IMG/VR virus record: IMGVR_UViG_3300043173_000386
Span: 7,344 to 71,343 of that record
Length of the DNA stretch: 64,000 nt
Direction: 5' to 3' (one strand)
Origin: a virus
Taxonomy: Duplodnaviria > Caudoviricetes
Below, one piece after another: positions 11,078-54,366 of this stretch (positions are counted from its first letter, which is position 1; every line of letters begins with the position of its first letter). The notes under the pieces were generated by a model that was not told the DNA's origin, searched no databases, and saw nothing but the letters and a program-made list of their open reading frames with translations. A program made the position numbers and the translations under genes.

Positions 11078-12480
11078 GTTACTTCCTCTCCGTTTTCAAG
11101 CCAATGCACCTTCACTGAATCCGGCAGTTTTGGCGGCTCTTTGAGTGTGCCAATCAACAGAATGTTGTTGTGTTCCTTGGCTACGCTGATCAACCATTTA
11201 ATCAGCTTGCCGCGGTTCGACAGATCGAGTACGTCCAGCCTGTCGAGTACCAGCAGACCGACCTCGGAAATGACGCTGATCGCTTCGGCAATGGTCGCTT
11301 GCGCCCGCCACTGGCTCGATTCAGACTGTAGGCCGAATGGGCGGTTATCCACCAATATATCCATCGTCGGTGTAACCACCGTCTGCGGCCATTGCGTCAG
11401 CATGGCGGTATTGCGGAGTCGGTCGTTCAGTGGTTTCAGCCTGTCGGCTACGATTTCACCGGGAATACCATCGGGCGCCAATGCCTCGGCAGCAGCAGCC
11501 CACGACGCCACAGAATGAGCGAAACCGGCCGCACGGTTGGCTACCGTGTCGGCGTGTTCGTTCCACTCCTGCTGGCGCTCAAGCAACTTCATGGCCTCTC
11601 CCGAGTTGTCGAAGGCCTCTTTGGCGTCAGTTACGGCCTGAGTCAGCTTTATCCGTTTCTTCTCGTCCTGCAGCGGGTGATCCTTGGTATCTTCCTCGCT
11701 GACCACGCGCACTGCGTTCTGCGTGTAATTCAGCCTGGCGCCGCAGCTCGGGCAATCGAATGATGTACCCATAGGCGAGCCCTTGAACGCCCCCATCGCC
11801 TGTTGTGCGGCAGCGTAGGCATCCTCGGCATCGTGACTCTCCTGTGTGACAGTCTTGAGCGTTTCCTCATCGACCTCTTTGTACTCGGGTTTCCAATCCT
11901 TTGCCTTCTCCGCGCCGTAGCGTTCGCCGGTCACGCCGGCCCACTCGCCTCTGGCTTCGGTCGCTTTCGACTTGGCCTCAGTGTGGGCGGCATCGAAGCC
12001 AGCGCGAAGGCTCGGCATGATCTTGTCGATCACAGGCTCAGGAATCTCCCGGTCCAACATTCGCTCTTTGACCAGCTCACGGTTCACGGTGATACCCAAC
12101 AGCCCGAACATGAACTTCCGGCGCTTCTTGGCATCCATCCAGCCATAACGGGTGGCATCGAGTAAATACTCGAGACTCACTGGCGGCTCAAGGCTCTCTG
12201 CCGTGCCTTTGGCAGTCGCCACATCACGCGCGTACATGCCAGTATCCATCACCACCTTGACCTGACCCTCTTTGGCGCCATCGGTAATCATCAGCTTGTA
12301 GTCACGCTTCATGCTGATCCGCTCAGTCTCACCCAACAGGCAATACCTCAAGGCTTCCTGCAGGGACGTTTTACCGGCCTCGTTGTGTCCAGCGAACAAG
12401 TGAACAATCGGCTCTTTCAGATCGACCTTTAATCGTCGCAGCCGCAGGAAGTTTGTTATTTCTATTCTTGTGATTTTCAA
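11074..12480 (-). CDS. SMC/Rad50-like ABC ATPase (recombination-associated)
   Basis: MKITRIEITNF start, Walker A AGHNEAGKTS, coiled coil with CPSCG hook, degenerate signature LQSESSQWR, Walker B LLVLDRLDVLD. Confidence 0.85.
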   Translation of the reverse strand: MKITRIEITNFLRLRRLKVDLKEPIVHLFAGHNEAGKTSLQEALRYCLLGETERISMKRDYKLMITDGAKEGQVKVVMDTGMYARDVATAKGTAESLEPPVSLEYLLDATRYGWMDAKKRRKFMFGLLGITVNRELVKERMLDREIPEPVIDKIMPSLRAGFDAAHTEAKSKATEARGEWAGVTGERYGAEKAKDWKPEYKEVDEETLKTVTQESHDAEDAYAAAQQAMGAFKGSPMGTSFDCPSCGARLNYTQNAVRVVSEEDTKDHPLQDEKKRIKLTQAVTDAKEAFDNSGEAMKLLERQQEWNEHADTVANRAAGFAHSVASWAAAAEALAPDGIPGEIVADRLKPLNDRLRNTAMLTQWPQTVVTPTMDILVDNRPFGLQSESSQWRAQATIAEAISVISEVGLLVLDRLDVLDLSNRGKLIKWLISVAKEHNNILLIGTLKEPPKLPDSVKVHWLENGEEVT

Positions 12481-12665
12481 GTTTGATCCTCGTAAAGTTC
12501 GTGGCGAAGAATGTCGATATCATCGTCTGCGTCAAAGCCAAGCCTGACCTCTTTCCCATGACCGGTATCCGGCAGGAACGCCAGCACGGAAATCCTGACC
12601 GGGTGCTTTCTTCCAGGCACGACGATATAAACTTCCTGACCGGGTTTTCTCCGTAGCGTCAGCAT
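12477..12665 (-). CDS. csrA: CsrA/RsmA-family translational regulator
   Basis: MLTLRRKPGQEVYI...VRISVL...EVRLGFDADDDIDILRHELY aligns with CsrA, retaining equivalents of L2, L4, R6, G9, R31, G33, A36, R44, E46, Y48. Confidence 0.85.
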   Translation of the reverse strand: MLTLRRKPGQEVYIVVPGRKHPVRISVLAFLPDTGHGKEVRLGFDADDDIDILRHELYEDQT

Positions 12666-12668
12666 TCC

Positions 12669-13760
12669 TTACTCCATTGAGAACTCGTTGTCCGTTGGGC
12701 CGGGATCACCGTCCGGTGGTGGAGGCGGGGAAGCAGAGGACTCTTTTTCCGACGCCGCTTGTGTGTCCTGGGCTGGCGCCGGCTGCTTGGGCTCGGACTC
12801 CGCTCCCCCACCAGTTGACTCTTTCTTGGCAGCGGTGCCACGCTTCTTTCGGAACGTGCCATCGTTGTTGAATACCGGGCCGTTCTCATTGGAAACGTGC
12901 GACTCCGGATCGTACTGCACTCCATTGGCATCGCGGATTACATCGGTAGAACCACCGCGGACCTCGGGTATGGCATCGTCAGTGTCCAGCACTTCGTAGT
13001 CGCCGGCGATAGCACGATCAAGCGATTGATCGGCACCACTGGCACCACGCTCGTCCAGATTGATACCGCGCGCCAGATCGACAGAGATTGGACAGTATTT
13101 TGCCAGCCGGCGCCATGCAGTCTTGCGTCCCATTTCGACAAAGTGATCTTTCCAAGGCCCGTACTCGCCCTTGGACTGCGACCGCTTCATGGTCAGCTCG
13201 ACAGCTTCGCGCGTCATTACCTCAAAGGCGTGGCCGCCATCTTTCATGTGTGCAACAGCGTAGAAGTGCGTTACCGGGCCTCGATCTCCGTCTGCCGGCT
13301 TGTGTTCCAACCGCTCGACCAATCCATACATATAATCGAAGTGATCGTTCTGGCAGACCTCATGCGCCGCGATGCTCACTATCTGACCGGAACGCCGCGC
13401 CAGATCAATCAGGCCTTTGTAGCCAATAATTACCTGAACGTCCGTGCGGTTCTTCTGCTTGTTGCGGAACGGAATCAGATAGGCGTGGCCGAGTACCGTG
13501 TTCGGCTCAAGTCCCATCATGGTGCATTGCATGATGCCGCCAATCAGAGAAGGCACGTAGCAGTTCTTCAATCCGGGCGTTGTGATTGCTACTTGGGTAG
13601 CCACTTGCAGCAGCCGTTCGGCTGACAAGTGTTTCGGCAACGCCGCCATGATCGCGTCTTTGTTTTGCTCAAGCAGATATTTCACCTGATCCTTGTGGTT
13701 CATTTGCGTGAGATCCTTCTTTCCCTCGGTTTTCTGTAGGTCTTTAATGTTTGTAGCCAT
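12669..13760 (-). CDS. recT: RecT-family single-strand annealing protein
   Basis: LPKHLSAERL, GLEPNTVLGHAYLIPF, QVIIGYKGLIDLARRSGQI, MGRKTAWRRLAKY; acidic disordered C-tail. Confidence 0.95.
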   Translation of the reverse strand: MATNIKDLQKTEGKKDLTQMNHKDQVKYLLEQNKDAIMAALPKHLSAERLLQVATQVAITTPGLKNCYVPSLIGGIMQCTMMGLEPNTVLGHAYLIPFRNKQKNRTDVQVIIGYKGLIDLARRSGQIVSIAAHEVCQNDHFDYMYGLVERLEHKPADGDRGPVTHFYAVAHMKDGGHAFEVMTREAVELTMKRSQSKGEYGPWKDHFVEMGRKTAWRRLAKYCPISVDLARGINLDERGASGADQSLDRAIAGDYEVLDTDDAIPEVRGGSTDVIRDANGVQYDPESHVSNENGPVFNNDGTFRKKRGTAAKKESTGGGAESEPKQPAPAQDTQAASEKESSASPPPPPDGDPGPTDNEFSME

Positions 13761-13771
13761 GACTTACTCCG

Positions 13772-14353
13772 TCAAAATGGAACGATGAAATTATCTGAAT
13801 CTGCTTCAACAGCTTCAATGATCGGTGCTTGCTTTTTCGTGCTGTGGTGACGCGCGTAAAGCGCATCGAGGTCGTGGTTAATGTATTCCTGTGGAACCCA
13901 AAACGCGGGCCGACCAGTTTTCTTTCTTACCGGTGGCGGTCTGTCGCTCCACCATTCCTCACGCCGGCCCTCTTTGCAGAGCATGTATCCTTGGATGCGC
14001 CATGTTGGCCCGATGCCTGTAACGAGGACGTAAATTCGATCACCCTTATCGACGCCTTCCGGGTGCAATCGCAACGGGTAGTTGTGGCCGGGCGTCGTTC
14101 GCACTTCCAACACACCAACATCGCTGGCGGTCACGATACCTACAGTTCCGTCCCACGGAATGCCGAGCCAGTTAGCGACACACTTCTCGCCGGATGCCCC
14201 GTTGATGTTCCAGAAAAACCCGACCTCAATCTTTTGTTCGCTGCCCAATCCGCGAGGATCAAAGCGTTTCTTCATTATTCCGTCCACATGACGCCGAGCG
14301 CCCTTTGCAGCGGCGAATGCCCAATCATCTTGGTCGAGTGTTATTTTTATCAT
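13772..14353 (-). CDS. Hypothetical protein, probable PD-(D/E)XK nuclease fold
   Basis: GASGEKCVANWLG...DVG.LEVRTT pattern; start taken at ATG 14353. Confidence 0.5.
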   Translation of the reverse strand: MIKITLDQDDWAFAAAKGARRHVDGIMKKRFDPRGLGSEQKIEVGFFWNINGASGEKCVANWLGIPWDGTVGIVTASDVGVLEVRTTPGHNYPLRLHPEGVDKGDRIYVLVTGIGPTWRIQGYMLCKEGRREEWWSDRPPPVRKKTGRPAFWVPQEYINHDLDALYARHHSTKKQAPIIEAVEADSDNFIVPF

Positions 14354-15195
14354 CGGAACAGACACCACTCATGCGCCGGGCAGTATTTCTCCGTACACAT
14401 GAAAGAGTTTGCGTTGCCGTAGAAGTCGCCGCTGGCGAGCATCGAGGCGATGTGATGCAGCAGTCCCTTTTGATGTTCGTTGCCAACCAGGGCGGCCGAA
14501 CAGTTCTCTACCTCTTTGACCGCGGCCTCGTAGTTGGAGCTCGTCTGCAGGGCGAGGATCTGGCCCGGCAGGGACAGCTTGATATCGAGCGTGTTGGTGG
14601 CGAGCAGCTCGTACACGCCCAACTGCGCTTTGTGCCGGCTGGCGGGCTGTGACACCGCTCTGGCGCCTGTTTTAACGTCAGATATGCCGTAGGCGACGTT
14701 GAACTGTGGCGTACCATCGGGCGCTTCGTATTCCTCTGCGATCTCGCGGATCCTGTCGAGCGTCCCGGTAAGCCTGATCGTGACCATCCGGCCATCGGCC
14801 AGCTCAATCTCGATTGGCATTTCGGTCAAGGTTTCTTCAACATGCGTATAGAATTGAAGCGGGGCAACGTCGAAGCAATAACGCGAGTGACAACCTATCC
14901 CGATTGCCTTTGCTTTCTCTTTCGTTACCCCGCCCCAATTCACTTCTTCTTGTTGGTCCCTTAGCACTTCTTCCACAATCTCCGCTGTGTCGTCGCAGGA
15001 CAGCCACCTTGCTTCGTTCTTGTCGAGGCGTGAGCGGTCAAACTCTGCTGTCGAGGCGTGTACCGCTGTGCCAATCACCGCCGGCGGCGTTGATGGCAAA
15101 CGGTTGCCCTCTATCTGCTTGATGAAAGCGCGTTGGGGACAATCAGCCCATTCCCAAAGGCCACTGGCCCTAATATGAAAATCAAGGTCAGTCAT
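14350..15195 (-). CDS. PD-(D/E)XK exonuclease, AddB/RecB-like (RecT partner)
   Basis: IRASGL..DCP, GTAVH, GTLDR, ISDVKTG, QLGVY, and C-terminal CTEKYCPAHEWC giving a 1+3 Cys Fe-S staple pattern. Confidence 0.85.
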   Translation of the reverse strand: MTDLDFHIRASGLWEWADCPQRAFIKQIEGNRLPSTPPAVIGTAVHASTAEFDRSRLDKNEARWLSCDDTAEIVEEVLRDQQEEVNWGGVTKEKAKAIGIGCHSRYCFDVAPLQFYTHVEETLTEMPIEIELADGRMVTIRLTGTLDRIREIAEEYEAPDGTPQFNVAYGISDVKTGARAVSQPASRHKAQLGVYELLATNTLDIKLSLPGQILALQTSSNYEAAVKEVENCSAALVGNEHQKGLLHHIASMLASGDFYGNANSFMCTEKYCPAHEWCLFR

Positions 15196-15548
15196 TCCCA
15201 CGGCATTCTCTTTGTGGTGTTCGCGGTGTTGTCCACCCAATAGCGGCGCAGCGTGACAGGCGGCATGTTTTTAACGAGACGCCACTGTTTAATATCTAGT
15301 TGCGACCCTGGCAACCGTTTCTGAATAATCTCGTACAATGAGTCGTCGCCATTACGCCGGTTCAGCTCGGCACAGGCCATCATGCGAATCAGGGAAGTGG
15401 CGGCATGACCACCACCCTTGGCGCCCTTCGTCGCGTAGTTCCAAAACCGTCGCCGGCCATGCCAATTCTGATACCACTTCGGCATCGCCATCTTGGTGTG
15501 CGCCCACCAGCGCGTGTACCACGGCAGCGCATCGAATACGGCGCTCAT
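15192..15548 (-). CDS. Hypothetical protein
   Basis: Coupled ORF in the leftward operon. Confidence 0.65.
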   Translation of the reverse strand: MSAVFDALPWYTRWWAHTKMAMPKWYQNWHGRRRFWNYATKGAKGGGHAATSLIRMMACAELNRRNGDDSLYEIIQKRLPGSQLDIKQWRLVKNMPPVTLRRYWVDNTANTTKRMPWE

Positions 15549-15549
15549 A

Positions 15550-21627: not shown

Positions 21628-21674
21628 TTGGGGCCAACCCGTAGGCACTCATGCGCCCCACCGGGCAGCCCCAA
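21628..21674 (-). promoter_or_regulatory. CGC-AUGA-GUG RNA hairpin on an extended stem (copy 1)
   Basis: UUGGGGC...GCCCG..GGGCGC AUGA GUGCCU.CGGGU.GCCCCAA on the minus strand, intergenic, upstream of the gene starting at 21595. Confidence 0.65.
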
Positions 21675-22336: not shown

Positions 22337-22722
22337 AGCGCCGCCTCGGCCTTTTGCAAGGATTTGATTGCGTGTTCCGGCAGCTTGTATTTCTTGCCAT
22401 CGTCGCGTGTCGCAATGATCGGGAACTTGCGCGCCTTGGCGCTGATGCCGGCCAGCGTGTAGTGGTGGCCGTTGTAGTTGAAGGCCTCGCCGCGTTGATC
22501 CGCCTTGAGCCGGTAGAGCAAACACATTTGCTCGTATTCTTCCTTCTCCGGATCGTAGCCCTCGACCGCCACTTCCAGCTTGAACTTCACAGCATTGTCG
22601 GAATAGCTGGCGTTACCACAATGGATGGTGACGCCCAACTCCTTAGCCAGCGGCACAAGCGCCGCGTTCAGTTCGTCGCGCAGGGTTTTGCACAGTGCGC
22701 GTGTGATTTTCTCGATCTTCAT
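22333..22722 (-). CDS. Conserved phage early protein
   Basis: ATG 22722 after a triple-GGA leader; LRDELNAAL...FPIIATRDDGKKYK pattern. Confidence 0.75.
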   Translation of the reverse strand: MKIEKITRALCKTLRDELNAALVPLAKELGVTIHCGNASYSDNAVKFKLEVAVEGYDPEKEEYEQMCLLYRLKADQRGEAFNYNGHHYTLAGISAKARKFPIIATRDDGKKYKLPEHAIKSLQKAEAAL

Positions 22723-22787
22723 TCCTGTTCTCCTTTCCTTTGGTGTAAAGCAAGAAGGGCAACACTCGGAAGTGCTGCCCGTTTTGC

Positions 22788-23099: not shown

Positions 23100-23117
23100 T
23101 CCTGTACTCCTTTCCTG

Positions 23118-23471
23118 TCAGTGCCAATAGAGCGCGATCCACGTATCAGGGGCTAATTCCCTGACATACGCGATCGCTGCCCTGAGTTTGGGGTATTCGG
23201 CCACATAGGTCATGGCGGCAATGTCGCCGGCCTTGTAGATGCGAAACTCGTCGCCGTATGGGTCTGTGGTGCCTTCCATGTGGCCGTAGCCGGGCTCATC
23301 GTTGTCCAGCTTGCTCACATAGCTCGACCAGTTCACCGGCGGGTCATAGCCGCGTAGCTTCCGCAGTTCGTCGTGATATTCGTAATTGCTGCCTACATCA
23401 ATCAGCGTGTGGGCGTAATTGAAGTCCATCGAGCTAGTGCCTAGCACCAGAAATCCGAGGTCAACACTCAT
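23118..23471 (-). CDS. Hypothetical early protein
   Basis: Ends IALYWH; coupled. Confidence 0.7.
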   Translation of the reverse strand: MSVDLGFLVLGTSSMDFNYAHTLIDVGSNYEYHDELRKLRGYDPPVNWSSYVSKLDNDEPGYGHMEGTTDPYGDEFRIYKAGDIAAMTYVAEYPKLRAAIAYVRELAPDTWIALYWH

Positions 23472-23949: not shown

Positions 23950-23971
23950 TTCCTGTTCTCCTGTCCTGTGG

Positions 23972-26620: not shown

Positions 26621-26715
26621 TCCTGTACTCCTGTCCTGTGGTGGTGAATCCGAATCAATATGATGAATAGAAAGTGCGCCAAGAAAAGCAGTTCTGTTGT
26701 CGCCATTACGTCCAT
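26617..26715 (-). CDS. Possible 32-aa hydrophobic peptide
   Basis: MDVMATTELLFLAHFLFIILIRIHHHRTGVQE fills the gap; weak RBS. Confidence 0.3.
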   Translation of the reverse strand: MDVMATTELLFLAHFLFIILIRIHHHRTGVQE

Positions 26716-26974: not shown

Positions 26975-27019
26975 TATCCTGTTCTCCTTATCCTGTACCT
27001 GAATAATAGGCCCAAACTG

Positions 27020-36279: not shown

Positions 36280-38543
36280 TGGTAGCTTCTGTAGAAAATA
36301 TGCGGAACTTGAAGCGTGGCGTTCAACCGCTGGATGCCCGCTTTGAACAGTTTGACGACGAGCCCGAGGAATCCACAGTTCACCCGTTGGACACGCCCGA
36401 GAGCGTCACGCTGCTGAAAAAGCTGCAGGAATGGTGGAACGAAGCCCGCACAGCTCATTCTGAAAACCGGTTTCAACAGTCAATCGACGCCGATTTTTAC
36501 GATGGTCTGCAATGGGACGACCGGGACGCCGAGATCTTGCGAGAGCGCGGCCAGGCGCCGCTGGTGTTCAACAAAACCGCGCAGCACATAAACTGGCTGC
36601 TTGGCACCGAACGCCGCACCCGCGTCGATTTCAAGGTACTGCCGCGCAAAGACCACCACGAACAAGTAGCCAAGTCCAAAACCAAGCTGCTGAAATACGT
36701 CTCCGATGTGAATAAATCGCAGTTCTCGCGCTCACGCGCGTTTGCGGATTCGATGAAAGTGGGTGTTGGCTGGCTTGAGGACGGTATTCGCTCGGACCCA
36801 CGCGAGGAACCGTTATTCAGCCGCTACGAGCACTGGCGAAATATGTGGTGGGATGCGCTCGCCAAAGAGCCGCATCTGCAGGACGGTCGCTATATTTTCC
36901 GCGTCAAGTGGACAGATTCGGACGTTGCCGAGGCGATGTTCCCTGAGCGAAAGAACGTACTGCAGCGCACCGCCCGGCATTCAGATCTGAACTTTTTTGA
37001 GGACGACGACGAGTTTATCTTCACTTCGTTGTATCACGATCATCGTGGCAACAACCCGGTCTTTGCCCGAGGCCGGTCTTTCTTGGATACGAGTTTCAAC
37101 ATAGGTAATCGCCGCAGGCGAAATAAGTTAATTGAGTGCTGGTATCGAAAGCCGGTCAGCGGGCAATTTCTTCGCTCCAAACCCCACGCACTGATGCAGC
37201 CTGAGTTGCTTGATCGCCTCGATGCAGTCAACGGACTGCCGTTTGAGGCCGGCGATATCGACCAGAAATTCCTCATGGATCAAAACCTTGTATCGACATT
37301 TGATGCCGTGGATATGCAAGTGTGGGTTGCCATTTGGAGCGGCGATCACTTGCTGCAGAACGTCCAGAGTCCGTACAACCACAACCGTTTTCCGTTCACT
37401 CCGATTTGGGCTTTCCGACGCGACCGGGACGGAATGCCATACGGCCCGATTCGCAACATGCGGGACGCTCAGGAAGATCTGAACAAACGCAAATCCAAAG
37501 CCCTGTTTATCCTCTCCACCAACCAGCTCATCGGTGACGAGGACGCTTTCGAGGATTGGGACGAAGCGATTGACGAAGCCGCGCGCCCTGATGGCGTTCT
37601 CAAACACAAGCGCGGTGCGTCTTTCGAGATCAACCGAAACATCGACTTGGCCGAGGAACACGTTCAACTGATGCGCGACGATATCGCGTTCCTTGAGTCG
37701 GCATCCGGCGTTACCGAGGAAAACCTGGGCGAAGTGACCAACACCAACTCGGGTACGGCGATCAATCTCAGGCAGACACAGGGATCGGTGGTTACTGCCC
37801 TGCTGTTTGACAATCTGCGTGAGTCGATCCAGCTCCAAGGCGAGATCGACCTGTCGCTGGTGGAACAGTTCTACGCCGAGCCCAAGATGGTTCGTATCGT
37901 GGACGATAGCGGTCGCACCGATTTCTTAGAGGTCAACACGGCGCAACGCGACGATGATGGCAACCTGAGCGTGTTGAATGCAATCACCGAGTCACAGGCT
38001 GATTTCATCGTGGATACACAGGATTTCCGCGAAACCATACGCCTCGCCATGTTCGATCAGCTCATGGAAATGACGACCAGGCTGGATCCGGAAATCACCA
38101 TGCAGCTCCTTGACCTGATTATTGATATGTCCGATCTGCCAGAGAAGGATGAGATTGTTCGCCGCATCCGAAAGATCAACGGCATGACAGATCCGGACGA
38201 TCCGAACCGCGACCAGATTGAGGCCGACGCGGCGGCAGAGGATAAAGCCGACAAGGATCGTGTGCGTAGAGGCGAGGATGCCAAGACCGCCAAGGATGAG
38301 GCAATGAGTGATAAAGTCGCCGCCGAGGCGGCCGGCACTCGGGCCGAAACCATCCAGCAAGCTCTGGAAATCGTCGCCGCACTCAAGGGCGATTCAAATT
38401 TAGCAACGGCAGTCGATATTATGATGGCTTCCGTTGAGGAACCGGGGACTGGTTCAGCAGCGCAAGCCTTATTGGCTGGCCCGCCGAGTCAGACCTTGGA
38501 AATTGAAACCCCGTTTGATGTTGAAACGGATACTCAGCAATAG
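36279..38543 (+). CDS. Portal protein (P22-like/podoviral)
   Basis: DADFYDGLQW, ERGQAPLVFN, PYGPIRNMRDAQEDLNKRKSK, SGTAINLRQTQG; position after terL. Confidence 0.9.
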   Translation: MVASVENMRNLKRGVQPLDARFEQFDDEPEESTVHPLDTPESVTLLKKLQEWWNEARTAHSENRFQQSIDADFYDGLQWDDRDAEILRERGQAPLVFNKTAQHINWLLGTERRTRVDFKVLPRKDHHEQVAKSKTKLLKYVSDVNKSQFSRSRAFADSMKVGVGWLEDGIRSDPREEPLFSRYEHWRNMWWDALAKEPHLQDGRYIFRVKWTDSDVAEAMFPERKNVLQRTARHSDLNFFEDDDEFIFTSLYHDHRGNNPVFARGRSFLDTSFNIGNRRRRNKLIECWYRKPVSGQFLRSKPHALMQPELLDRLDAVNGLPFEAGDIDQKFLMDQNLVSTFDAVDMQVWVAIWSGDHLLQNVQSPYNHNRFPFTPIWAFRRDRDGMPYGPIRNMRDAQEDLNKRKSKALFILSTNQLIGDEDAFEDWDEAIDEAARPDGVLKHKRGASFEINRNIDLAEEHVQLMRDDIAFLESASGVTEENLGEVTNTNSGTAINLRQTQGSVVTALLFDNLRESIQLQGEIDLSLVEQFYAEPKMVRIVDDSGRTDFLEVNTAQRDDDGNLSVLNAITESQADFIVDTQDFRETIRLAMFDQLMEMTTRLDPEITMQLLDLIIDMSDLPEKDEIVRRIRKINGMTDPDDPNRDQIEADAAAEDKADKDRVRRGEDAKTAKDEAMSDKVAAEAAGTRAETIQQALEIVAALKGDSNLATAVDIMMASVEEPGTGSAAQALLAGPPSQTLEIETPFDVETDTQQ

Positions 38544-38564
38544 CTTCGCATGAGTGAAGGAGTA
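38531..38564 (+). promoter_or_regulatory. CGC-AUGA-GUG hairpin (copy 2) sequestering the scaffold RBS
   Basis: UACUC...CUUCGC AUGA GUGAAG GAGUA; the AAGGAG SD lies in the 3' strand. Confidence 0.65.
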
Positions 38565-38569
38565 GGAAA

Positions 38570-39508
38570 ATGAGCAAAGACGCCGCTGCGGTAGCAGCAA
38601 CCGATACGCCGACCGACGATGAGCAGGCAGCAGCAAAACCCGGCCTGTCTGACGAGGAAAAGGCCGCTTTAGCCGCCGAAGATGATCAAGCCGGTGGCGG
38701 CACAAAAGACGATAAGGCTGCAGACGCGGCAAATCCTCCCCTGGATGCGGCTGACGCCGATTCAACTGCTGATGCCGCTGCCGGCGCTTCTGACGACAAA
38801 CCAGACGCACCGCCCGAAATACCGCGTGGTGCCGCGGCCAACGTAAATCTGCAACCGTCGCGAGCTGTCGATTTGAACCTTGTCAATGAGCGATTGGGAA
38901 CCCTTACCGACCTACAGGCCGATTTGGACAAGAAGTACGACGATGAGGATTTGACCGCTAAGGACTATCTGGCCCAATCTCGCGATATCACACAGGAAAC
39001 CGCCGATCTCAACGCAGACATACGTGAGGCGCATTTCGTTTCCAGTGCCAACGCAACGCTCGCAGTGACCGATTGGCAGCGGTCGGTCAACGATTTTGTT
39101 GACAGCAACGCCGAGTTCAGCAGCAGCATCATGCAGGGCGCACTGAACGCTGCACTGAATGAGCTGTACACAGAGGAAGCTAATTTCGGCTCGTCGCACA
39201 ACTGGTATTTGCAAACGGCGAAACGTGCCGTGCTTGAACAAATTTCGCCGGCCGACGCGGCTGCCGCTAATCCATCGGACGCGGATCCCAATGCCAAAGC
39301 AGTCGCCGCAGCCAAGGGCGCTGCTGATAAAGCCGCCGACGCCAAGGGCAAGTTGCCGAAAACACTGAGCGACGTACCCGCGGCTGACGACGCCGGCACC
39401 GGCAAGGATAAGTTTGCCGATATCGACAATCTTGAGGGCGTCGAGCTGGAAGCCGCCTTGGCAAATATGACCACCGAGCAAGAACAAGAGTATTTGCGGG
39501 CCGAATGA
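38570..39508 (+). CDS. Putative capsid scaffolding protein
   Basis: Acidic Ala/Asp-rich, coiled, between portal and capsid; C-terminal LEAALANMT.EQ..YL. Confidence 0.75.
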   Translation: MSKDAAAVAATDTPTDDEQAAAKPGLSDEEKAALAAEDDQAGGGTKDDKAADAANPPLDAADADSTADAAAGASDDKPDAPPEIPRGAAANVNLQPSRAVDLNLVNERLGTLTDLQADLDKKYDDEDLTAKDYLAQSRDITQETADLNADIREAHFVSSANATLAVTDWQRSVNDFVDSNAEFSSSIMQGALNAALNELYTEEANFGSSHNWYLQTAKRAVLEQISPADAAAANPSDADPNAKAVAAAKGAADKAADAKGKLPKTLSDVPAADDAGTGKDKFADIDNLEGVELEAALANMTTEQEQEYLRAE

Positions 39509-39733: not shown

Positions 39734-39761
39734 GGTTCCGGGTCGCATGAGTGACTGAACT
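39734..39761 (+). promoter_or_regulatory. CGC-AUGA-GUG hairpin (copy 3) in the major capsid leader
   Basis: GGUUC-cg-GGUCGC AUGA GUGACU-GAACU. Confidence 0.65.
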
Positions 39762-39787
39762 CTCCCCACCACCGGAGGTAGTTACTC

Positions 39788-40915
39788 ATGGCGCGCACAA
39801 TCATTGGGTTAAATGATCCCAAGGCCGTAAAAAGATTCAGTGCGTTTCTGGCAGTCGATACCGCTCGAATCAGTTATTTCAATCGCAAGTTCATGGGGGT
39901 CGGTCCCGAGAGCGGGATGCCGATTCAAATGCTACCCGAGCTGGAAAACGACGCGGGCGAGCAAATCACTTTTGATCTGATCATGCAGCTCAGGCAGCAA
40001 CCGATTGAAGGCGACGACGTTCAGGAAGGCACCGAAGAAGATCTCAAGTTCTACACTGATCAGGTTTTTATAGATCAGATGCGCGGCGGCGTAAATGTCG
40101 GCGGTCGCATGACGCGGAAACGTACCATTCACGACTTGCGACGGATCTCTCGTCGCAGACAGTCCGAATGGTGGGGCCGGGTATTCGATGAGTTGTTTTT
40201 CATCTACCTTTCCGGCGAACGCGGCGAGAACACCGAGTTCATCTTCCCCACGACCTACGCCGGGTTCGCAAACAACCCGTTGCAGACTCCCGACGCCGAT
40301 CACAGGCTGTACGGTGGTGACGCCACTTCCAAGGCAACGGTTGACGCTGCCGACATAATGGACACCGATGTTATCGACCGCAGCAAGACGCGGGCGGTGA
40401 TGATGGGTGGCGGTACGCAGGGAACACCGCAGATTCAGCCCATTATGATCGACGGTGAGGAACACTACGTTCTTCTGATGAGCCCCTGGCAGGAGTTCGA
40501 TCTCCGCACCGCGGCCGGCGCGTCCAACTGGCTTGAAATCCAGAAAGCCGCTGCCACCGCCGAAGGCCGTAAGTCCCCGATTTTTAAGGGCGGCCTTGGG
40601 ATGCACAATAATGTCGTACTTCAGAGTCACAAAGGAGTGCTTCGTTTCACAGACTACGGTGCAGGAACCGATGTAGCTGCCGCCAGAGCCTTGTTCATGG
40701 GCGCACAAGCTGGCGTAGTCGCGTTTGGCTCACCCGGCACCGGGCTCCGTTTCGACTGGCACGAAGAAAGCCGCGATAACGGCAACCAGGTGGTAATCTC
40801 CACTTCCTCAATCTACGGATTGAAGAAAACGAGGTTTACCATCGAAGGCACAGCGAAGGACTTTGGCATCTTGGCGGTTGATACCGCGGCTGCTGATCCG
40901 GCGCCTGTCACTTAA
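39788..40915 (+). CDS. Major capsid protein (N4-gp56/DUF4043-like)
   Basis: ELENDAGEQITFDL...EGDD..EG.EE.L..Y.D...IDQ.RGGV..GGRMTRKRT; NPIFKGGLG-like and AARALFMGAQA motifs. Confidence 0.9.
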   Translation: MARTIIGLNDPKAVKRFSAFLAVDTARISYFNRKFMGVGPESGMPIQMLPELENDAGEQITFDLIMQLRQQPIEGDDVQEGTEEDLKFYTDQVFIDQMRGGVNVGGRMTRKRTIHDLRRISRRRQSEWWGRVFDELFFIYLSGERGENTEFIFPTTYAGFANNPLQTPDADHRLYGGDATSKATVDAADIMDTDVIDRSKTRAVMMGGGTQGTPQIQPIMIDGEEHYVLLMSPWQEFDLRTAAGASNWLEIQKAAATAEGRKSPIFKGGLGMHNNVVLQSHKGVLRFTDYGAGTDVAAARALFMGAQAGVVAFGSPGTGLRFDWHEESRDNGNQVVISTSSIYGLKKTRFTIEGTAKDFGILAVDTAAADPAPVT

Positions 40916-41410: not shown

Positions 41411-41422
41411 AATCCATGAGTG

Positions 41423-41447
41423 GCCCGCCCTTCGGGGCGGGCTCTTA
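41423..41447 (+). terminator. Intrinsic terminator-like hairpin after the capsid genes
   Basis: GCCCGCCC-TTCG-GGGCGGGC then TCTTA. Confidence 0.7.
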
Positions 41448-41469
41448 CAGGCCTGGGGAGGACGACGAA

Positions 41470-42045
41470 ATGCTGATTGAGTGCAGACAGCGCCGCGATG
41501 CGCGGCCAAGTAAACGTGTCGGTCGCAAAGACCTTGATCTTGGCACGAAATCCAAAGTACACGGCAAACGCTACTGGTTCAGACCGCAACCCGATCTGAT
41601 CAGCAATGGCGGTGATCCACTCGCGCATGTGTGCGAGGTTGAAGATCCGAAAGCCATTGAACGCTATTTGTCGATTGCCGAGGCATACAACGAATTTGGC
41701 AAGCCGCCGCGGGTAGCGCCAGAAGGCCGGGAGTTTGCCAGTGGCGGTCAGCCTGAAATCGAAACCTTGTTGCTCGATGCGGACGATGCTCTCGGCAAGC
41801 GCGATTCCAAACCTTTTACCTCGGATCCGCTTGAACGTGCGCGTGAGCTGCAGGGCGAGTGGGTTCAGGATATGCTCGACAAGTCCGTGCATGATATCGT
41901 TAAAACCGTGCCGGGCCTGCAGGACAGTGAGGTTGCTTTACTGCTTAACGGCGAGAATAAAGGCCAGCAACGATCTGAGCTATTACAAGCCTTAGATCCT
42001 GCTTTTGTTGCACCAGGGGAGACAACAGACATTCAGATGGAGTAG
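41470..42045 (+). CDS. Hypothetical head-associated protein
   Basis: ATG 41470 after GGGGAGGA; Y.F.P...HVCEV.D..AIERYLSI.EAY pattern. Confidence 0.7.
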   Translation: MLIECRQRRDARPSKRVGRKDLDLGTKSKVHGKRYWFRPQPDLISNGGDPLAHVCEVEDPKAIERYLSIAEAYNEFGKPPRVAPEGREFASGGQPEIETLLLDADDALGKRDSKPFTSDPLERARELQGEWVQDMLDKSVHDIVKTVPGLQDSEVALLLNGENKGQQRSELLQALDPAFVAPGETTDIQME

Positions 42046-47034: not shown

Positions 47035-47046
47035 GGAGCTTAAATT

Positions 47047-48310: not shown

Positions 48311-48329
48311 TCAGTTCGTCTGATGCGGG

Positions 48330-50168
48330 GTGGCTTCTCGATTTAGTATTTGGTGGCGCCGTGGCCGCCAATTAGCGAAGCTACCCCCGCTCGACCGTTT
48401 TGCACCACCACCGCCACCGGGGCAACCGGTGTCGGCGTTTACGCCGCATTTCCAGCAGACGCAAAACACCACTCACCGGCGAACGCCGGAAGAAAGCCCG
48501 CACAATCCCGAGCATCCCGCGACTCCTGAGCCGCCGTTTGCGTTCGGTGCGGTAACGCCCGCGACTTCGATCAAGCGCCGCGAGACTCGTCGCCAGCGCA
48601 TACCTGATCCGTTCCATTACGACAAGCCATTAACCACGCGGATCACGCATCTGACCGCGATGGCCTTGTACGGCCAAGGTCCGCCGACTACGCGGATCAC
48701 TCACCTGACCGCAATGGTCTTGTATCGAAATCCAACCTCTCAGGGCCATCCTGAGACGACACCGCCCAAGAAGGGCAAAAAGCGCAAAAACACATTCCCG
48801 TTTGGTACTTCTGCTGGTCGCAGCAGACGCCAGCTACCACGACTTGACACATTCGCGCCGACACCGCCCGGCTTTTTTGCTGGTCAAATTCCGTCATTCG
48901 TACCGTCAGGCTTCTTCAAGAGCTCGTTCACGCGCACCTTGCAGCAGCCGCTTGAGCTCGATCAGCGGCCACCTACGCCGCCACCGCCTGTATCGGTTGT
49001 TGCCGAGACACCAGCACTTAAAGCCAATTTCAGCCGCTTCACGCGCAAGTTACTGACTCCGCTTGAGCTGAATGAACACCCGGCAACGCCGCCCTCAGTA
49101 ATCCCGCCAGCCGCGCTAGATCTGCTGCTTGAGGCCAACCTGGTTGAGTTCAAACGGCAGATCCAGAAGCTACCGCAGCTCGATCAACGACCACCCACGC
49201 CACCACGATTCTTTGAAGGCTTCTGGCCTGCGTCAGATCCATTCCCGACCTTCAAGGTATCGTTTGATCGTAAGCTGCTGACACCGGCAGAGATTGACGA
49301 GTACCCGCCGCCGCCGCCATCGGCTGATCTTTACTCGGCCATTCACAAGTCGCCGGCGGCCATCAGAAGTGAGTTCAAGCGAACGCTGCAAACGCTTGGC
49401 AACCCACACGTTTATCCGGCGACACCGCCCGGCTTTAGGTGGCCGCGTCCACCGATGCCGACGCACAAGGTTGCGTTCGATCGCAAGCTGCAAACGCTGG
49501 CGCATAACGAGGAATACCCGGCGACACCGCCCGGCTTCTTTGAGGGGCAGTGGCCGTCGCACAAGCCACCACCAACGCTAAAGGCATCGTTCGCCCGCCA
49601 GCTCAAGCTGCCGCCAGAACACAACGTCTATCCGCTGCCGCCAGTATCGGCAGACGACTATGCCGGCTATACGCCTGTTCCGAAGTTCACTCAGTCGTTC
49701 ACCAGACAACTGCAGGCGCTTGGTAATCCGCATGTGTATCCGGCAACACCGCCTGGATTCAGATGGCCGCGGCCACCGATGCCAACGCACAAGGTTGCGT
49801 TCGCACGGCATTTGCAGCAATTACCGCAGCTCGATGAGCGTCCGTTGGCGGCGGCAATACAACCACCGCAGCCTGCGGTCGAGTCGTTCAATGTCAGCTT
49901 TACTCGAGATCGACAAGAGCTCGCACACAACTCAGCCTATCCACCGACGCCGCCGAGCATCATCGAGGGCATGGCGCCGTGGGCGGCTCGATCCATCCGG
50001 CGCCGTGAAACACGCCGCAAACTGCAGCCGGTATGGGATCCATCTTCAAACATACCGGAACTGTTTGTACCGGGGCTCACTATTTGCTGGCGAGCTGATC
50101 CTATCAATCTTGTCTGGAAGGCCTGCGCTGACGGTACAACTTGGTTCGCAGATCCACTGTGCGATTAA
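48330..50168 (+). CDS. Proline-rich tandem-repeat protein 1
   Basis: About 10 units of (S/E/A)F.R.LQ...(E/V)YP.TPP.F..WP; variation is mostly synonymous in this frame; C-terminal CW.AD...W.A motif. Confidence 0.75.
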   Translation: MASRFSIWWRRGRQLAKLPPLDRFAPPPPPGQPVSAFTPHFQQTQNTTHRRTPEESPHNPEHPATPEPPFAFGAVTPATSIKRRETRRQRIPDPFHYDKPLTTRITHLTAMALYGQGPPTTRITHLTAMVLYRNPTSQGHPETTPPKKGKKRKNTFPFGTSAGRSRRQLPRLDTFAPTPPGFFAGQIPSFVPSGFFKSSFTRTLQQPLELDQRPPTPPPPVSVVAETPALKANFSRFTRKLLTPLELNEHPATPPSVIPPAALDLLLEANLVEFKRQIQKLPQLDQRPPTPPRFFEGFWPASDPFPTFKVSFDRKLLTPAEIDEYPPPPPSADLYSAIHKSPAAIRSEFKRTLQTLGNPHVYPATPPGFRWPRPPMPTHKVAFDRKLQTLAHNEEYPATPPGFFEGQWPSHKPPPTLKASFARQLKLPPEHNVYPLPPVSADDYAGYTPVPKFTQSFTRQLQALGNPHVYPATPPGFRWPRPPMPTHKVAFARHLQQLPQLDERPLAAAIQPPQPAVESFNVSFTRDRQELAHNSAYPPTPPSIIEGMAPWAARSIRRRETRRKLQPVWDPSSNIPELFVPGLTICWRADPINLVWKACADGTTWFADPLCD

Positions 50169-50179
50169 GAGGATGAACG

Positions 50180-51211
50180 ATGGCACTTTTACTGATCGAA
50201 GGGTTTGAGCAATACACGATAGGCGATTCGCCAGAATTGGCTCGGGGTGGTTGGGCAGCCAACACCACACTCAACAACAGTTTTTACATTTTGAAAGCAG
50301 GGCGACACGCTGGCGGGCAAGGGATTGAACTCGCTCTTAACGGCGGCAATCTGTTTCACCCCATACCGGCAACCGATGTTGTAACGGTTGGCTTTGCTTA
50401 CCGCATGGTCGATGCCGGTCCTTCTGCTCAAACTTTCTTGAATTTGCGAAATGGTCTTATTGATCACTTGGGTTTGGTTGCCACCGTTGGCGGTGAACTT
50501 CGATTGAATCGTGGCGTTACTCAGATCGACATTACGAGCGGCCTGGGTCTGACGCAGAACATTTGGTATTACTTTGAGATTGACGCCACAATCCACAACA
50601 GCACAGGTGCCTACGAAGTTCGTTTAGACGGTGCCACGATATTGAGCGATACCGGTGTTGATACGCAAAATGCCGGTGACGCTGTAGTGGACAATATCGA
50701 GTTTTTGGGCAACTCCGCGACTGATAATGAATTTGACGATATCTATGTCCTCGATGATGCCGGCACTGACAATACTGGCCTACTTGGTGATTGCCGGGTT
50801 GAAACTGTTTTTCCAGATGCGCTTGGCAATGAGAATGACTTCACGGCATCGCCGGCAGTAGATCAACACTTAAACGTCGATGATGGCGTCACGCCTGACG
50901 ACGACACGACCTATAACTGGTCTGCAACAGCGACAGACAGAGAACTCTATGGATTCGCTGCACTGACCGGAAATGTCGGCACTGTCTTTGGTGTTGATGC
51001 AAAAATGCTGTGCAGAAAAGAAGATGCCGGCTTTCGTGAGGTTCGCGTGATTGCCCGCAGCAACATAACCGAAGTCGAGAGCGGCAATCTGACGCTTGGC
51101 GTTGACTATATCTACAAGAACAACATTTACGAAAATGATCCCAACGGTGGAATAAACTGGACTGAAACATCGGTCAACGCGGCGCAGTTCGGAATAGATC
51201 TGCAAACGTGA
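50180..51211 (+). CDS. Lectin-like tail appendage protein, paralog 3
   Basis: EGFEQY, WYYFEI, DDIYVLDD...LGDCRVET.FP, DPNGG.NWT...VNAAQFG. Confidence 0.75.
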   Translation: MALLLIEGFEQYTIGDSPELARGGWAANTTLNNSFYILKAGRHAGGQGIELALNGGNLFHPIPATDVVTVGFAYRMVDAGPSAQTFLNLRNGLIDHLGLVATVGGELRLNRGVTQIDITSGLGLTQNIWYYFEIDATIHNSTGAYEVRLDGATILSDTGVDTQNAGDAVVDNIEFLGNSATDNEFDDIYVLDDAGTDNTGLLGDCRVETVFPDALGNENDFTASPAVDQHLNVDDGVTPDDDTTYNWSATATDRELYGFAALTGNVGTVFGVDAKMLCRKEDAGFREVRVIARSNITEVESGNLTLGVDYIYKNNIYENDPNGGINWTETSVNAAQFGIDLQT

Positions 51212-51219
51212 TGTAGGTC

Positions 51220-54200
51220 GTGACCACCTACACAGAAGATTGGTCTGGTGAAGCAGACGGTGTTTATCCGTCAGGTCTGACAAAACGATGGACAACCACC
51301 AATGAAACAGTCGTTGCGGCCAACTCACTTGCGGAGGCCGAAGATAATTTCACGTTTGAGCAAGAATGGTCGTCCACTTCGGTTCGCAGGCTCAACAGTT
51401 TTAACGCAATAGATGGCGATGCCAACCGCGATGATCTCGACCTCGTAGTACGGTTCCGAATAAACGAAACACCCGGCGATTACCAGTACGGACTTACGGT
51501 TCGTGCATCTGGCACCGCGGGCTCGGAAACCGCGTATGACTTTTGGGTGGTTGAATCAGTCGCCAATACCTTTTTCGTCCAGTTGATCGAGCGCAACTCC
51601 GGCGTAAACGGAGCAGTGGTTTCCGGTGCGGATCAAGTCTCTGATGTAGCCAACGGTGATTGGCTCTACATGCGGGTGCGATGCAATGGCACCACCTTAC
51701 AAGGCAGGCTGTGGAAACCCGATGAAACGGAACCGACGACTTGGAGCCTCGACACGACCGATGCGACGATCACCGCAGCCGGTTGGGGCGGCATCCTCGG
51801 TTTCACGACTGGCTCAAATGCGGAAACAGATTATATAGCCGCCGGTACAGCCGGCGACACCGCACCGATAGATGCGTCAACGAATACCGTTCTTCGGATC
51901 ACTGCCGGTTACGGCGCAGCCCTCGTAACAGATGCCAGCGTTCCGGTGCGCCTCACAGCGGCCTACGCGGCAGCTCTGGTCAAAGACGACACGACGCCGG
52001 TACGGATCACGGCCGCTTACGCGGCAGTCTTATATTCCGGCGCCGTCGATGTGTTGCCAGCGTCAGCCTATATACCGGCGCCACTGCCCTTCAAAACGAG
52101 CTTTGCCCGGAAACTCCAAGTCCCTGCCGAGTTGGATGAACACCCGCCGACACCTATCTCGGTTGCCGCTGAAACGCCAGCCTTGCAGGCGAACCGTGTC
52201 TCATTTGAACGCGATCTCCAACAACCGCTGCAACTGGACACGCGACCGAAAACACCCATACCGCCAGCCGCCTTCATTCCTGTACCCAAGGCGAACCTGA
52301 CTTCGTTCAAGCGCGTTCGCCAGGTAGTCCTCAATCCTCATGTTTACCCGCCAACACCGGCAGGATTTTTCGACGGTTTCTGGCCCGGCTCCAAGCGCGT
52401 CGAGGCGATCCTTGCCGAATTTGAGCGTGAACTGCAGAAGCTACCGCAGCTTGACGAATTTGAGGTAACACCGCCGGGCTTCTTCGCTGGTCAGTTCCCG
52501 GCAGCGGTCAGGCTCAAGCGGATCCCGAGCGCCTATCATCGCGAGGCGAAAGCTCCGCTTGAACTGAACGAGCGCCCGCCGACGCCACCGGGCTTTTTCG
52601 AGGGTCACTGGCCGGCGCCGATCCCTGATCCAACGCATCGAACGTCCTTCAAGCGGACGCTGCAAACCCTTGCAATTCCACCGGTTTACCCGAAAACGCC
52701 GGTATCTGCGGAGGACTACGGCGGCTATACTAAATTTCCGGCTGAAAACCGGATTGAATTTAACCGGCAAATTCAGCCGGTCCTCAATCCGCATGTGTAT
52801 CCAGAGACACCGTTCGGCTTCCAGTGGGGTTTCTACCCCGGATCGAAGGCGGTCGAGTCCTTCAAGGTTGAGTTCAAGCGAACCCGGCGAGATCTCCCGC
52901 ACAACCCTGAATATCCCCCGACGCCAGCCGGTTTCTTTGATGGCTTCTGGCCCGGATCGAAGGCAGTTGAATCGTTCAATGTCTCGTTTACTCGGGTCGC
53001 TCAGAAGCTACCTGAGCTCGATGAGTTTGAGCCCACGCCGCCACGATTCTTTGAGGGCTTCTTCCCCGCGCCATTCAGGATCAAGCGGATCCCGAGCTCA
53101 TACCATCGGCAAGCGCAGCGCGTTCTCGATCCGCATGTGTACCCGACCACTCCTGTCGGATTCTTTGACGGTTTCTACCCCGGATCTAAACGGGTTGAGA
53201 GCTTTGTATCGTCATTCAAGCGGACAGTTCAGAAGTTACCTGAGCTTGATCGTTATAAGCCCACACCGCCGCGGTTCTTTGAGGGCTTCTTCCCGGCTCC
53301 TTTCCGCGTCAAGCGGATCCCGAGCTCCTACCATCGTGAGGCACAGCGCGTTCTCAACCCGCATGTGTATCCGGCTACGCCTGTCGAACACTGGCCGGCT
53401 CACAAGCGCGTCGAGGTCAACCGGACAGCGTTCACACGGCGTTTGCAGACACCACTTGAGATCGACCGCTATCCGGAAACTCCGAAATCCGCGGTTGCCT
53501 ACGCCGGGCATACGCCTGTACCGACGCTCAAGGCCTCGTTCACGCGCCGGCTGCAGAGCCTCGGCAACCCGCATGTGTATCCACCGACGCCAGCAGGCTT
53601 TTTCGATGGCTTCTGGCCTGGATCTAAGCGTGTAGAACCACTGCGTAGTGCATACGAGCGCCGCCTTGCAAAACTGCCGCAGCTCGATGAGCGTCCACCG
53701 CCGCTGCCTGTGGTGCTGGCGCTGCCGCAGCCGGCGAAACGAGTCAAATTTACACGTAGCGTCCAGACGGTAATTCACCCCGAGCTGCCAACGCCAACCC
53801 CGCCGGGCTTCCGTTGGCCGAGGCCGCCGCCACCTGTTCTCAGGAGTGAGTTCACGCGCGAGCTGGCGAAGCTGCCGCAGCACGATCAATGGACGCCGAC
53901 CCCGCCGCGCTTCTTTGAGGGCCAGTATCCGGCTGCCTTCCGGGTAGAGACTCACAAGGTATCGTTCAAGCGAACGCCGCAACCGGTTGTGTTAAGCAGA
54001 TTCCGACCGGTTGCGATAGTGACCGCTTATCGGGCTGTCACTACCATTCGTCGGCGGGCCACCACCTTCAAAGCCTTTGCGCCACCGCTGCTGCAGCTCA
54101 GTCGTATTTTCCCGCCATCGTTCATTATTGGTGACGCCAGATGGCAGATGCGGGCTATTTACCGACGCGACATTCAGCGGGTCATTCAGCCAGTGTGGAA

Positions 54201-54309
54201 CGCATCGCCTATTGTTGCAGAGGGTTTCCGTCCTTCGGATCCGGACTGCATCTGGCTCGCGGATTGTGCGCCTACCGTGTGGTTAGCTCAGGATGAGTCC
54301 TGTATTTGA
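51220..54309 (+). CDS. Lectin-domain + proline-rich tandem-repeat protein 2
   Basis: ConA-like N-terminal domain, three R(I/L)TA motifs, about 18 Pro-rich units of the same type as 48330-50168, C-terminal CIWLADC..VWLA. Confidence 0.8.
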   Translation: MTTYTEDWSGEADGVYPSGLTKRWTTTNETVVAANSLAEAEDNFTFEQEWSSTSVRRLNSFNAIDGDANRDDLDLVVRFRINETPGDYQYGLTVRASGTAGSETAYDFWVVESVANTFFVQLIERNSGVNGAVVSGADQVSDVANGDWLYMRVRCNGTTLQGRLWKPDETEPTTWSLDTTDATITAAGWGGILGFTTGSNAETDYIAAGTAGDTAPIDASTNTVLRITAGYGAALVTDASVPVRLTAAYAAALVKDDTTPVRITAAYAAVLYSGAVDVLPASAYIPAPLPFKTSFARKLQVPAELDEHPPTPISVAAETPALQANRVSFERDLQQPLQLDTRPKTPIPPAAFIPVPKANLTSFKRVRQVVLNPHVYPPTPAGFFDGFWPGSKRVEAILAEFERELQKLPQLDEFEVTPPGFFAGQFPAAVRLKRIPSAYHREAKAPLELNERPPTPPGFFEGHWPAPIPDPTHRTSFKRTLQTLAIPPVYPKTPVSAEDYGGYTKFPAENRIEFNRQIQPVLNPHVYPETPFGFQWGFYPGSKAVESFKVEFKRTRRDLPHNPEYPPTPAGFFDGFWPGSKAVESFNVSFTRVAQKLPELDEFEPTPPRFFEGFFPAPFRIKRIPSSYHRQAQRVLDPHVYPTTPVGFFDGFYPGSKRVESFVSSFKRTVQKLPELDRYKPTPPRFFEGFFPAPFRVKRIPSSYHREAQRVLNPHVYPATPVEHWPAHKRVEVNRTAFTRRLQTPLEIDRYPETPKSAVAYAGHTPVPTLKASFTRRLQSLGNPHVYPPTPAGFFDGFWPGSKRVEPLRSAYERRLAKLPQLDERPPPLPVVLALPQPAKRVKFTRSVQTVIHPELPTPTPPGFRWPRPPPPVLRSEFTRELAKLPQHDQWTPTPPRFFEGQYPAAFRVETHKVSFKRTPQPVVLSRFRPVAIVTAYRAVTTIRRRATTFKAFAPPLLQLSRIFPPSFIIGDARWQMRAIYRRDIQRVIQPVWNASPIVAEGFRPSDPDCIWLADCAPTVWLAQDESCI

Positions 54310-54328
54310 GCGGTGTTTTCGGGTATAA

Positions 54329-54366
54329 GATCGGCATTGGGTCGCATGAGTGACCGCCAACTGATC
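54329..54366 (+). promoter_or_regulatory. CGC-AUGA-GUG hairpin (copy 4) on an extended stem
   Basis: GAUCGG-ca-UUG-GGUCGC AUGA GUGACC-gc-CAA-CUGAUC; 16-nt exact match to copy 3. Confidence 0.65.

Follow-up and report, generated by a model that had tools for sequence, protein, structure and literature searches.

A diverged CsrA-fold protein and a recurrent A-N-G-A hairpin as a candidate late translational control system in a Bcep22-like podophage and its relatives

The 64-kb window analysed here, out of a 71.3-kb IMG/VR virus record (IMGVR_UViG_3300043173_000386) that is rated complete, comes from a Bcep22-like podophage with two CsrA-family genes, an early canonical one (P0001) and a late diverged one (P0002). 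Short hairpins with an AUGA loop occur in the leaders of structural genes of this phage, and in its relatives the hairpin is tied to the late CsrA-like protein by co-occurrence, co-loss and shared relocation, an association drawn from genome comparison that we regard as well supported. We put at about 0.55 the probability that P0002 is an RNA-binding translational regulator of a lineage-wide, capsid-adjacent family and that it acts through this hairpin; we infer from the patterns described below that P0002 binds the hairpin, in which direction it controls translation and when it does so. A preliminary description of this DNA had proposed an integrated circuit of two tiers, in which each CsrA-fold protein is paired with its own class of leader and an RNA near 10.6 kb modulates the first tier. 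Our analysis favours the late pairing, leaves the early pairing plausible on mixed evidence and speaks against the RNA modulator.

The 73-aa P0002 matched no Pfam or NCBIfam model and thus stands outside the CsrA family as profiles delimit it. Its best profile signal was phrog_8397, 'CsrA-like regulator' (expectation value, E, 0.0019), and direct DNA and protein searches of a phage collection returned no match for P0002 or for the 5-kb late region. By BLASTP, P0002 is related to gp54 of phage Bcep22 (E 2e-8), a protein that is annotated as 'CsrA-like regulator', scores 32.3 bits with the Pfam CsrA model (cut-off 27) and is encoded at the same position, directly before the capsid gene. A hidden Markov model (HMM) of the capsid-adjacent family detects the canonical P0001 (E 3e-4). 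The AlphaFold2 monomer model of P0002, built with 11 homologues (predicted local distance difference test score 78.7), has the order b1-b2-helix-b3-b4-b5, with H24-28 placed between E16-18 and E35-42. Its top four PDB matches in Foldseek were RsmF/RsmN structures (4krw/4k59/4kji; probability 1.0, template modelling (TM) score 0.63-0.72), and its structure neighbours in the ESM Atlas were clusters of PF02599 (CsrA; TM 0.65-0.69). Because of the gp54 homology, the structural matches, the Atlas neighbours and the HMM that reaches P0001, we place P0002 in the CsrA-fold group, with a predicted topology like that of RsmN/RsmF; by sequence, P0002 has no significant match to RsmN. A ubiquitin-like fold, raised by weak PDB sequence matches to ubiquitin and RAF-RBD (E 0.3-1), was set aside in view of the structure search.

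The window has five copies of CGCAUGAGUG, all of them in sense orientation, and four of the five fold in intergenic leaders as a 6-bp stem with an AUGA loop. A covariance model run over the window gave exactly four strong hits (25-28 bits, the next hit scoring 15 bits; Table 1), three of them in late leaders. The loops in this phage, all AUGA, lack the GGA of a CsrA operator. The hairpin in the scaffold leader overlaps with its 3' arm the Shine-Dalgarno sequence AAGGAG, 13 nt before the start at 38570. The third late hairpin lies inside a 122-nt spacer preceding a 104-aa gene, which is followed by a connector/head-closure gene (54746-56008; phrog_8040 match). The early hairpin tops a longer stem in a leader that also has two GGA, and it is kept in the relative L010, at position 2229.

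The hairpin was followed through 80 IMG/VR loci with a capsid homologue (61-99% identity), whose capsid leaders have it in nearly every case. Across these relatives it takes the general form CGC-ANGA-GUG, where N is any base (U 32, G 19, A 17 and C 2 among 70 distinct instances), so that GGA is dispensable in the loop; 5-nt loops and AUAU/AUAG are rare variants. The inner stem CGC/GUG is invariant, including a conserved G-U pair, and is extended by a covarying outer stem. Since the 70 instances were picked by their 10-nt core only, the outer stem provides an unbiased test of pairing: the first outer pair was UA in 35 instances and GC in 32, with zero unpaired, the next outer pair took six pair types, and the covariation score was 0.413 versus 0.153 in shuffles (0 of 500 reached 0.413), with slid registers giving 0.06-0.23. 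Over all loci, 99 copies of the core were in sense orientation and 3 in antisense, a strand bias that, with the invariant G-U pair, favours an RNA element over a DNA site. Nearly all instances (68 of 73) lie no more than 64 nt upstream of an ORF (open reading frame) start, and the hairpin ends 4-14 nt from the start in the case of scaffold genes and 21-43 nt from it in that of capsid genes. At 4-14 nt, the scaffold hairpins either overlap the Shine-Dalgarno sequence or present it as a loop AGGAG; in some relatives, and in the gp51 leader of Pseudomonas phage Epa33 (Hollowayvirus, F116-like), the loop AGGAG is the Shine-Dalgarno itself.

In 77 of the 80 loci a CsrA-like gene stands directly upstream of the capsid gene, and the other three belong to one lineage. 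Of these 77 loci, 60 have the strict core no more than 140 nt ahead of the capsid start, against a background of 0.06% per window, and four gene-carrying records hold 2-4 core copies apiece, all on the sense strand. The 60.7-kb record G010 (92% complete) has neither the CsrA-like gene nor the core motif on either strand; in the capsid tree its lineage is nested among carriers, which indicates that gene and hairpin were lost jointly. Phage 933W and Vibrio phage K249, of a deeper capsid clade, also have neither. In Epa33 the CsrA-like gp49 is encoded 2 kb downstream of the capsid gene, and three exact GCGC-AGGA-GUGC hairpins are found in the leaders of gp50, gp51 and gp56, with none before the capsid gene. 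In locus L076 a gene is inserted between the regulator and capsid genes and the hairpin remains at the capsid leader, showing it to be a leader element and not a 3' appendage of the regulator gene. The co-occurrence of gene and hairpin across related genomes, which had been put forward as a check on the late pairing, thus extends over a wide lineage and includes a common loss and a common move.

Some smaller observations concern the leaders themselves. At loci L032-L034 (~2454-2484) the UGA within the AUGA loop of the capsid-leader hairpin is the stop codon of the CsrA-like gene. In capsid leaders (window 39751-39787; L013-L092) the 3' arm GUGAC/GUGC has its complement (GUUAC/GUCAC or GCAC) in the spacer that separates the Shine-Dalgarno from the AUG, and an alternative pairing of arm and spacer that would mask the start region is possible; matching forms of the two occur in 10/15 versus 12/26 rows, a pattern confounded by phylogeny. 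Just downstream of the third late hairpin, a 14-codon upstream ORF (54388-54434, plus strand) starts with GTG after a good AGGGAG Shine-Dalgarno, and its terminal UGAUG overlaps the ATG at 54432 of the 104-aa gene, which lacks a separate Shine-Dalgarno; the arrangement suggests translational coupling. This third hairpin was also tried as a marker of one gene across relatives and was rejected in that role, the downstream genes in the relatives G006 and G007 matching none of the window genes tested.

In the mechanism we favour, P0002 would read a short hairpin made up of the CGC/GUG inner stem, the covarying outer stem and the A-N-G-A tetraloop, and its operator sites in this phage would be the scaffold leader, the capsid leader, the third late leader and one early leader. 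A CsrA-like mode appears most likely, in which a dimer would bind the loop and block or modulate ribosome access, and repression at the scaffold gene is the most likely direction of control. The ATG of P0002 overlaps the scaffold stop codon (ATGA) and is not preceded by a separate Shine-Dalgarno, so that any control of scaffold translation would also act back on P0002 itself. The chromosomes of the Burkholderia hosts of such phages lack csrA (PMC7366521), which points towards targets within the phage. That the hairpin is the operator of the late CsrA-fold protein has, in our estimate, somewhat better than even odds. More tentative is the extension to a regulon of the whole lineage, in which temperate podophages (Bcep22-like, Lastavirus, Hollowayvirus and many uncultured) would share a CsrA-fold protein of altered specificity with A-N-G-A hairpins on scaffold, capsid and a few other late leaders, the early canonical CsrA forming a second, temporally separate tier in several of them.

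Several findings weigh against this reading. Arg44 is an essential residue in CsrA/RsmA; at the equivalent site P0002 has Leu60 (IDLHP), where Bcep22 gp54 (IDRQ) and P0001 (ILRHE) have Arg, and over the P0002 family the position varies among K, R, V, L, Q, S and others. No correspondence is seen between the loop base N and this residue, hence no covariation of protein and RNA. A correspondence of AUGA with Leu in the window clade versus AGGA with Lys in L008/L009 had been considered and was withdrawn after the 80-locus survey, in which N proved free within clades; counterexamples are L024 (AGGA with Val) and L046 (AUGA with Lys), and two hairpins of one genome often differ. The co-loss comprises one nested lineage and one deep clade, and another lineage-specific factor with the same loss pattern could account for it. 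Finally, one peptide of the homologue in phage JC1 was seen in virions (PMC9144972), which could point to a structural role.

The hairpin might instead be a cis-acting RNA element independent of the CsrA-like protein, serving as 5' stabiliser, processing signal or Shine-Dalgarno throttle, with the gene as a neighbour that serves some other function, either in the virion or its assembly or as a moron directed at host mRNAs. The scaffold hairpin, overlapping the Shine-Dalgarno, could limit translation alone, and the loss of the canonical RNA-binding Arg in many family members, the free loop base and the published view of the gene as a 'moron' with possible virion association (PMC9144972) all agree with such an element. 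A cis-acting element of this kind would not lead one to expect the joint loss in G010 or the presence of gene and hairpin together at a different site in Epa33. That the loop A, G and A and the G-U pair never vary suggests that the sequence itself is recognised, not a generic stem, and RNase III needs a stem longer than 6 bp. We therefore hold an independent cis-acting element to be rather unlikely and prefer regulation by P0002.

Table 1. Positions of the CsrA-family genes, leader elements and spacer in the 64-kb window.
Feature	Position	Strand	Remarks
P0002, diverged CsrA-fold gene, 73 aa	39505..39726	plus	between scaffold gene and major capsid gene
Hairpin CUUCGC-AUGA-GUGAAG, scaffold leader	38544..38559	plus	covariance hit 38538-38565, 27.8 bits; same site kept in relatives
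Hairpin GGUCGC-AUGA-GUGACU, capsid leader	39741..39756	plus	covariance hit 39735-39762, 26.6 bits; 34 nt before start 39788
Hairpin GGUCGC-AUGA-GUGACC, third late leader	54340..54355	plus	covariance hit 54334-54361, 28.5 bits
Hairpin GGGCGC-AUGA-GUGCCU, early intergenic spacer	21643..21658	minus	covariance hit 21637-21664, 25.3 bits; 50 nt before start 21595
P0001, canonical CsrA gene, 62 aa	12477..12665	minus	late in leftward early operon, directly after RecT-like gene
Triple-GGA leader, fifth copy	26975..26995	minus	before GTG start; probably first gene of leftward operon
Triple-GGA leader CACAGGACAGGAGUACAGGA	26621..26640	minus	AUG directly after; 66-aa gene
Triple-GGA leader	23951..23970	minus	before 162-aa gene
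Triple-GGA leader	23100..23119	minus	before 103-aa gene
Triple-GGA leader	22723..22742	minus	before ATG at 22722
252-nt spacer between convergent operons ('10.6-kb RNA')	10532..10783		decoy role unsupported

The early gene is the more conventional of the two. P0001 matched Pfam PF02599 (CsrA) at E 2e-10 (40.9 bits, cut-off 27) and phrog_9500, 'CsrA-like regulator'; its matches to the NCBIfam CsrA equivalog models all fell below cut-off, and we therefore treat it as a family member, not an equivalog. The RNA-binding residues are kept: the N-terminus reads MLTLRRK (L-x-L-x-R-R), and ILRHE aligns with VHREE, so that the Arg44 equivalent is present. As a canonical CsrA, P0001 is expected to bind GGA RNA. 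Close homologues in metagenomes share a RecT-CsrA-AAA ATPase synteny; relatives of P0001 were sought in IMG/VR and none was confirmed. The existence of two CsrA-fold genes, as the preliminary description had it, accordingly rests on the Pfam match of P0001 and on the gp54 homology and RsmF/RsmN matches of P0002.

The 20-mer CACAGGACAGGAGUACAGGA has four matches in the window at no more than 3 mismatches (22723, 23100, 23951 and 26621) versus none in 100 shuffles. Together with a fifth copy, at 26977-26993, these triple-GGA leaders lie on the minus strand, abut start codons and are confined to the early leftward operon, so the claimed existence of two repeated leader elements, and their partition between early and late genes, can both be upheld. 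Three GGA within the last 25 nt are found before 5 of 30 early genes; of the 51 plus-strand genes one has them, and of random windows 0.3%. Within the 20-mer the GGA occupy positions 4, 9 and 17, and the third adjoins the AUG. GGA motifs in CsrA dimer sites lie 10-63 nt apart; with the outer two 13 nt apart and one at the translation start region, the triple-GGA leaders conform, as sequences, to this rule.

Among relatives, the case for a pairing of P0001 with these leaders is uneven. The close relative L010, whose CsrA is 89% identical, keeps three triple-GGA leaders as well as the early hairpin. G006 and G007, with capsid proteins 82% identical, carry a syntenic canonical CsrA; in G007, a 71-kb relative (L098, G007:C1:37000-56500, plus strand), at least five genes have another repeated early leader, the double-GGA AAAGGAGAAAGGAAA-AUG. 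Epa33 also has two CsrA-family genes: gp26 (L099 4333-4704), with a canonical N-terminal domain and a 70-aa tail, in the leftward early operon, and the diverged gp49 (L100 73-279) in the late module. Against the pairing, G006 has an early canonical CsrA and yet ordinary leaders with a single Shine-Dalgarno and no multi-GGA, Epa33 likewise lacks multi-GGA leaders, and the middle GGA of the triple-GGA leaders is a Shine-Dalgarno sequence. We therefore regard the pairing as plausible and still doubtful; the five triple-GGA leaders are candidate targets of P0001, and host mRNAs would be an equally good target set.

A serious alternative, to which we give a little less than even odds, is that the triple-GGA leaders are a duplicated strong ribosome-binding cassette (Shine-Dalgarno plus purine-rich standby sites) spread among small early genes by recombination, while the early CsrA has the Csr regulon of the host as its target. 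The central AGGAG at normal start spacing fits such a cassette, as does the different repeated leader of G007, which makes repeated leader cassettes habitual in these operons; the flanking ACAGGA units, on the other hand, agree with the core of the CsrA site, the last GGA directly adjoins the start codon, a position in which it cannot serve as Shine-Dalgarno, and a canonical CsrA is encoded in the same operon. Host manipulation has been proposed for phage CsrA (PMC11879866, PMC8450108).

The complete two-tier circuit adds to the pairings that the early CsrA shuts off triple-GGA genes, that the late protein tunes structural genes via AUGA hairpins and that the RNA near 10.6 kb titrates the early CsrA. 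The partition of the leader elements, the 13-nt gap between first and third GGA, the three GGA in the leader of csrA (P0001) itself and the recurrence of the early canonical plus late diverged layout in G006, G007 and Epa33 are all in its favour. It has to contend with the G006 and Epa33 leaders, with the one hairpin in the early operon and with its RNA. The spacer at 10.6 kb has GGA at background (4 per strand versus 3.4 expected), folds no better than shuffles (z-scores -1.4 and -1.9) and had no match in Rfam; by blastn, its flanking genes are conserved in L010 and L011 and the spacer is absent from both. A decoy role for this RNA, and with it the proposed modulation of the first tier, is very improbable, and the circuit as a whole we consider quite unlikely. 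The two effects named in the preliminary description are better worded conditionally: the late protein may tune structural stoichiometry, and the early one may shut off early genes.

The proposed late system resembles CsrA/RsmA/RsmE regulation (e.g. of the glgC and hcnA leaders) in its small beta-strand dimer fold and in operators that are short hairpins, located at the Shine-Dalgarno or shortly before it, with conserved bases in the loop; moreover, P0001 falls within the Pfam definition, and the hairpin variant with an AGGA loop (CGCAGGAGUG) agrees with the consensus of CsrA sites. It differs in that the phage loop is A-N-G-A, with the first G of GGA dispensable, that the Arg44 equivalent is often lost in the phage family, that P0002 scores below the Pfam threshold and that the targets would be phage structural-gene leaders. 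RsmN/RsmF of Pseudomonas aeruginosa, the best structural match to the P0002 model, has the helix between b2 and b3, not at the C-terminus, and the model predicts this order of elements for P0002 too. RsmN, however, keeps the critical Arg and binds GGA, whereas P0002 has Leu; and since shorter family members such as Bcep22 gp54 have no internal insert, the shared topology may be convergent. Bcep22 gp54 and JC1 gp47 belong to the same family as P0002 and have the same place directly upstream of the capsid gene, but the phage of the window adds a second, canonical early CsrA and has an internal insert in its late protein. Decoys of the CsrB/RsmY/RsmZ type present GGA in numerous loops and are retained along with the cognate CsrA; neither applies to the 10.6-kb spacer. 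In P22, scaffold synthesis is under post-transcriptional control, with the scaffold protein itself as effector; the phage described here has a P22-like portal and assembly module, but its candidates are a dedicated CsrA-fold protein and a defined hairpin.

Phage csrA genes are already known: Sobrero and Valverde (2020) surveyed csrA alleles of 30 phages, including F116, DC1 and GP4 (PMC7366521). For the CsrA-like gene of Bcep22-like phages, the function has been reported as unknown or, in JC1, as that of a 'moron' (PMC9144972, PMC7366521). In phage PTXU04, knock-down of a csrA homologue led to small plaques, in a 2025 study that called the role in infection previously untested (PMC11879866). 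The literature searched contained no description of the hairpin or of an RNA element cognate to phage CsrA-like genes, and the proposed late protein-plus-hairpin regulon is apparently new. A conserved candidate RNA partner on scaffold and capsid leaders makes the role of these long-catalogued phage csrA 'morons' directly testable. If our reading is correct, P0002 and its relatives would be natural CsrA-fold proteins for which GGA is dispensable, would inform how the fold reads RNA and could be used as an orthogonal translational switch. Capsid assembly in a widespread group of phages would also come under a further, protein-RNA level of control; the capsid relatives of this group include Stx-converting phages, themselves without the system.

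As to the genome at large, the major capsid gene (39788-40915) encodes a protein 54% identical to those of Bcep22-like podophages of Burkholderia, Ralstonia and Pseudomonas and ~30% identical to capsid proteins of Stx-converting phages. Late genes run rightward from ~27 kb, and the early operon runs leftward from ~27 kb down to 10.8 kb, with methylase, exonuclease, RecT-like and SbcC-like genes. The window contains no tRNAs and no Rfam matches at gathering or E-value thresholds. CATGAGTG at 41415, examined as a fifth hairpin, was not found by the covariance model and is no member of the family; it represents the first codons of an ORF, or a spacer, directly ahead of a terminator-like hairpin. 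The latter (41423-41445, plus strand) is a G+C-rich hairpin, GCCCGCCC-UUCG-GGGCGGGC, located 3' of a 160-aa virion protein gene, and a terminator is annotated in the corresponding location of Bcep22, behind gp56. In the long form of ORF 41416-42045 this hairpin falls among the opening codons, which makes the in-frame ATG at 41470, preceded by the Shine-Dalgarno GGGGAGGA, the likelier start. The insertion in L076 (1330-1894) comprises an ORF of ~110 aa and a stretch with a tRNA-like T-arm (GGTTCGAGTCC). At the other end of the window, a giant ORF on the plus strand (3-8573), open at the window start and longer than 2856 codons, has the position of the DarB-like or polyvalent virion protein in Bcep22-like phages.

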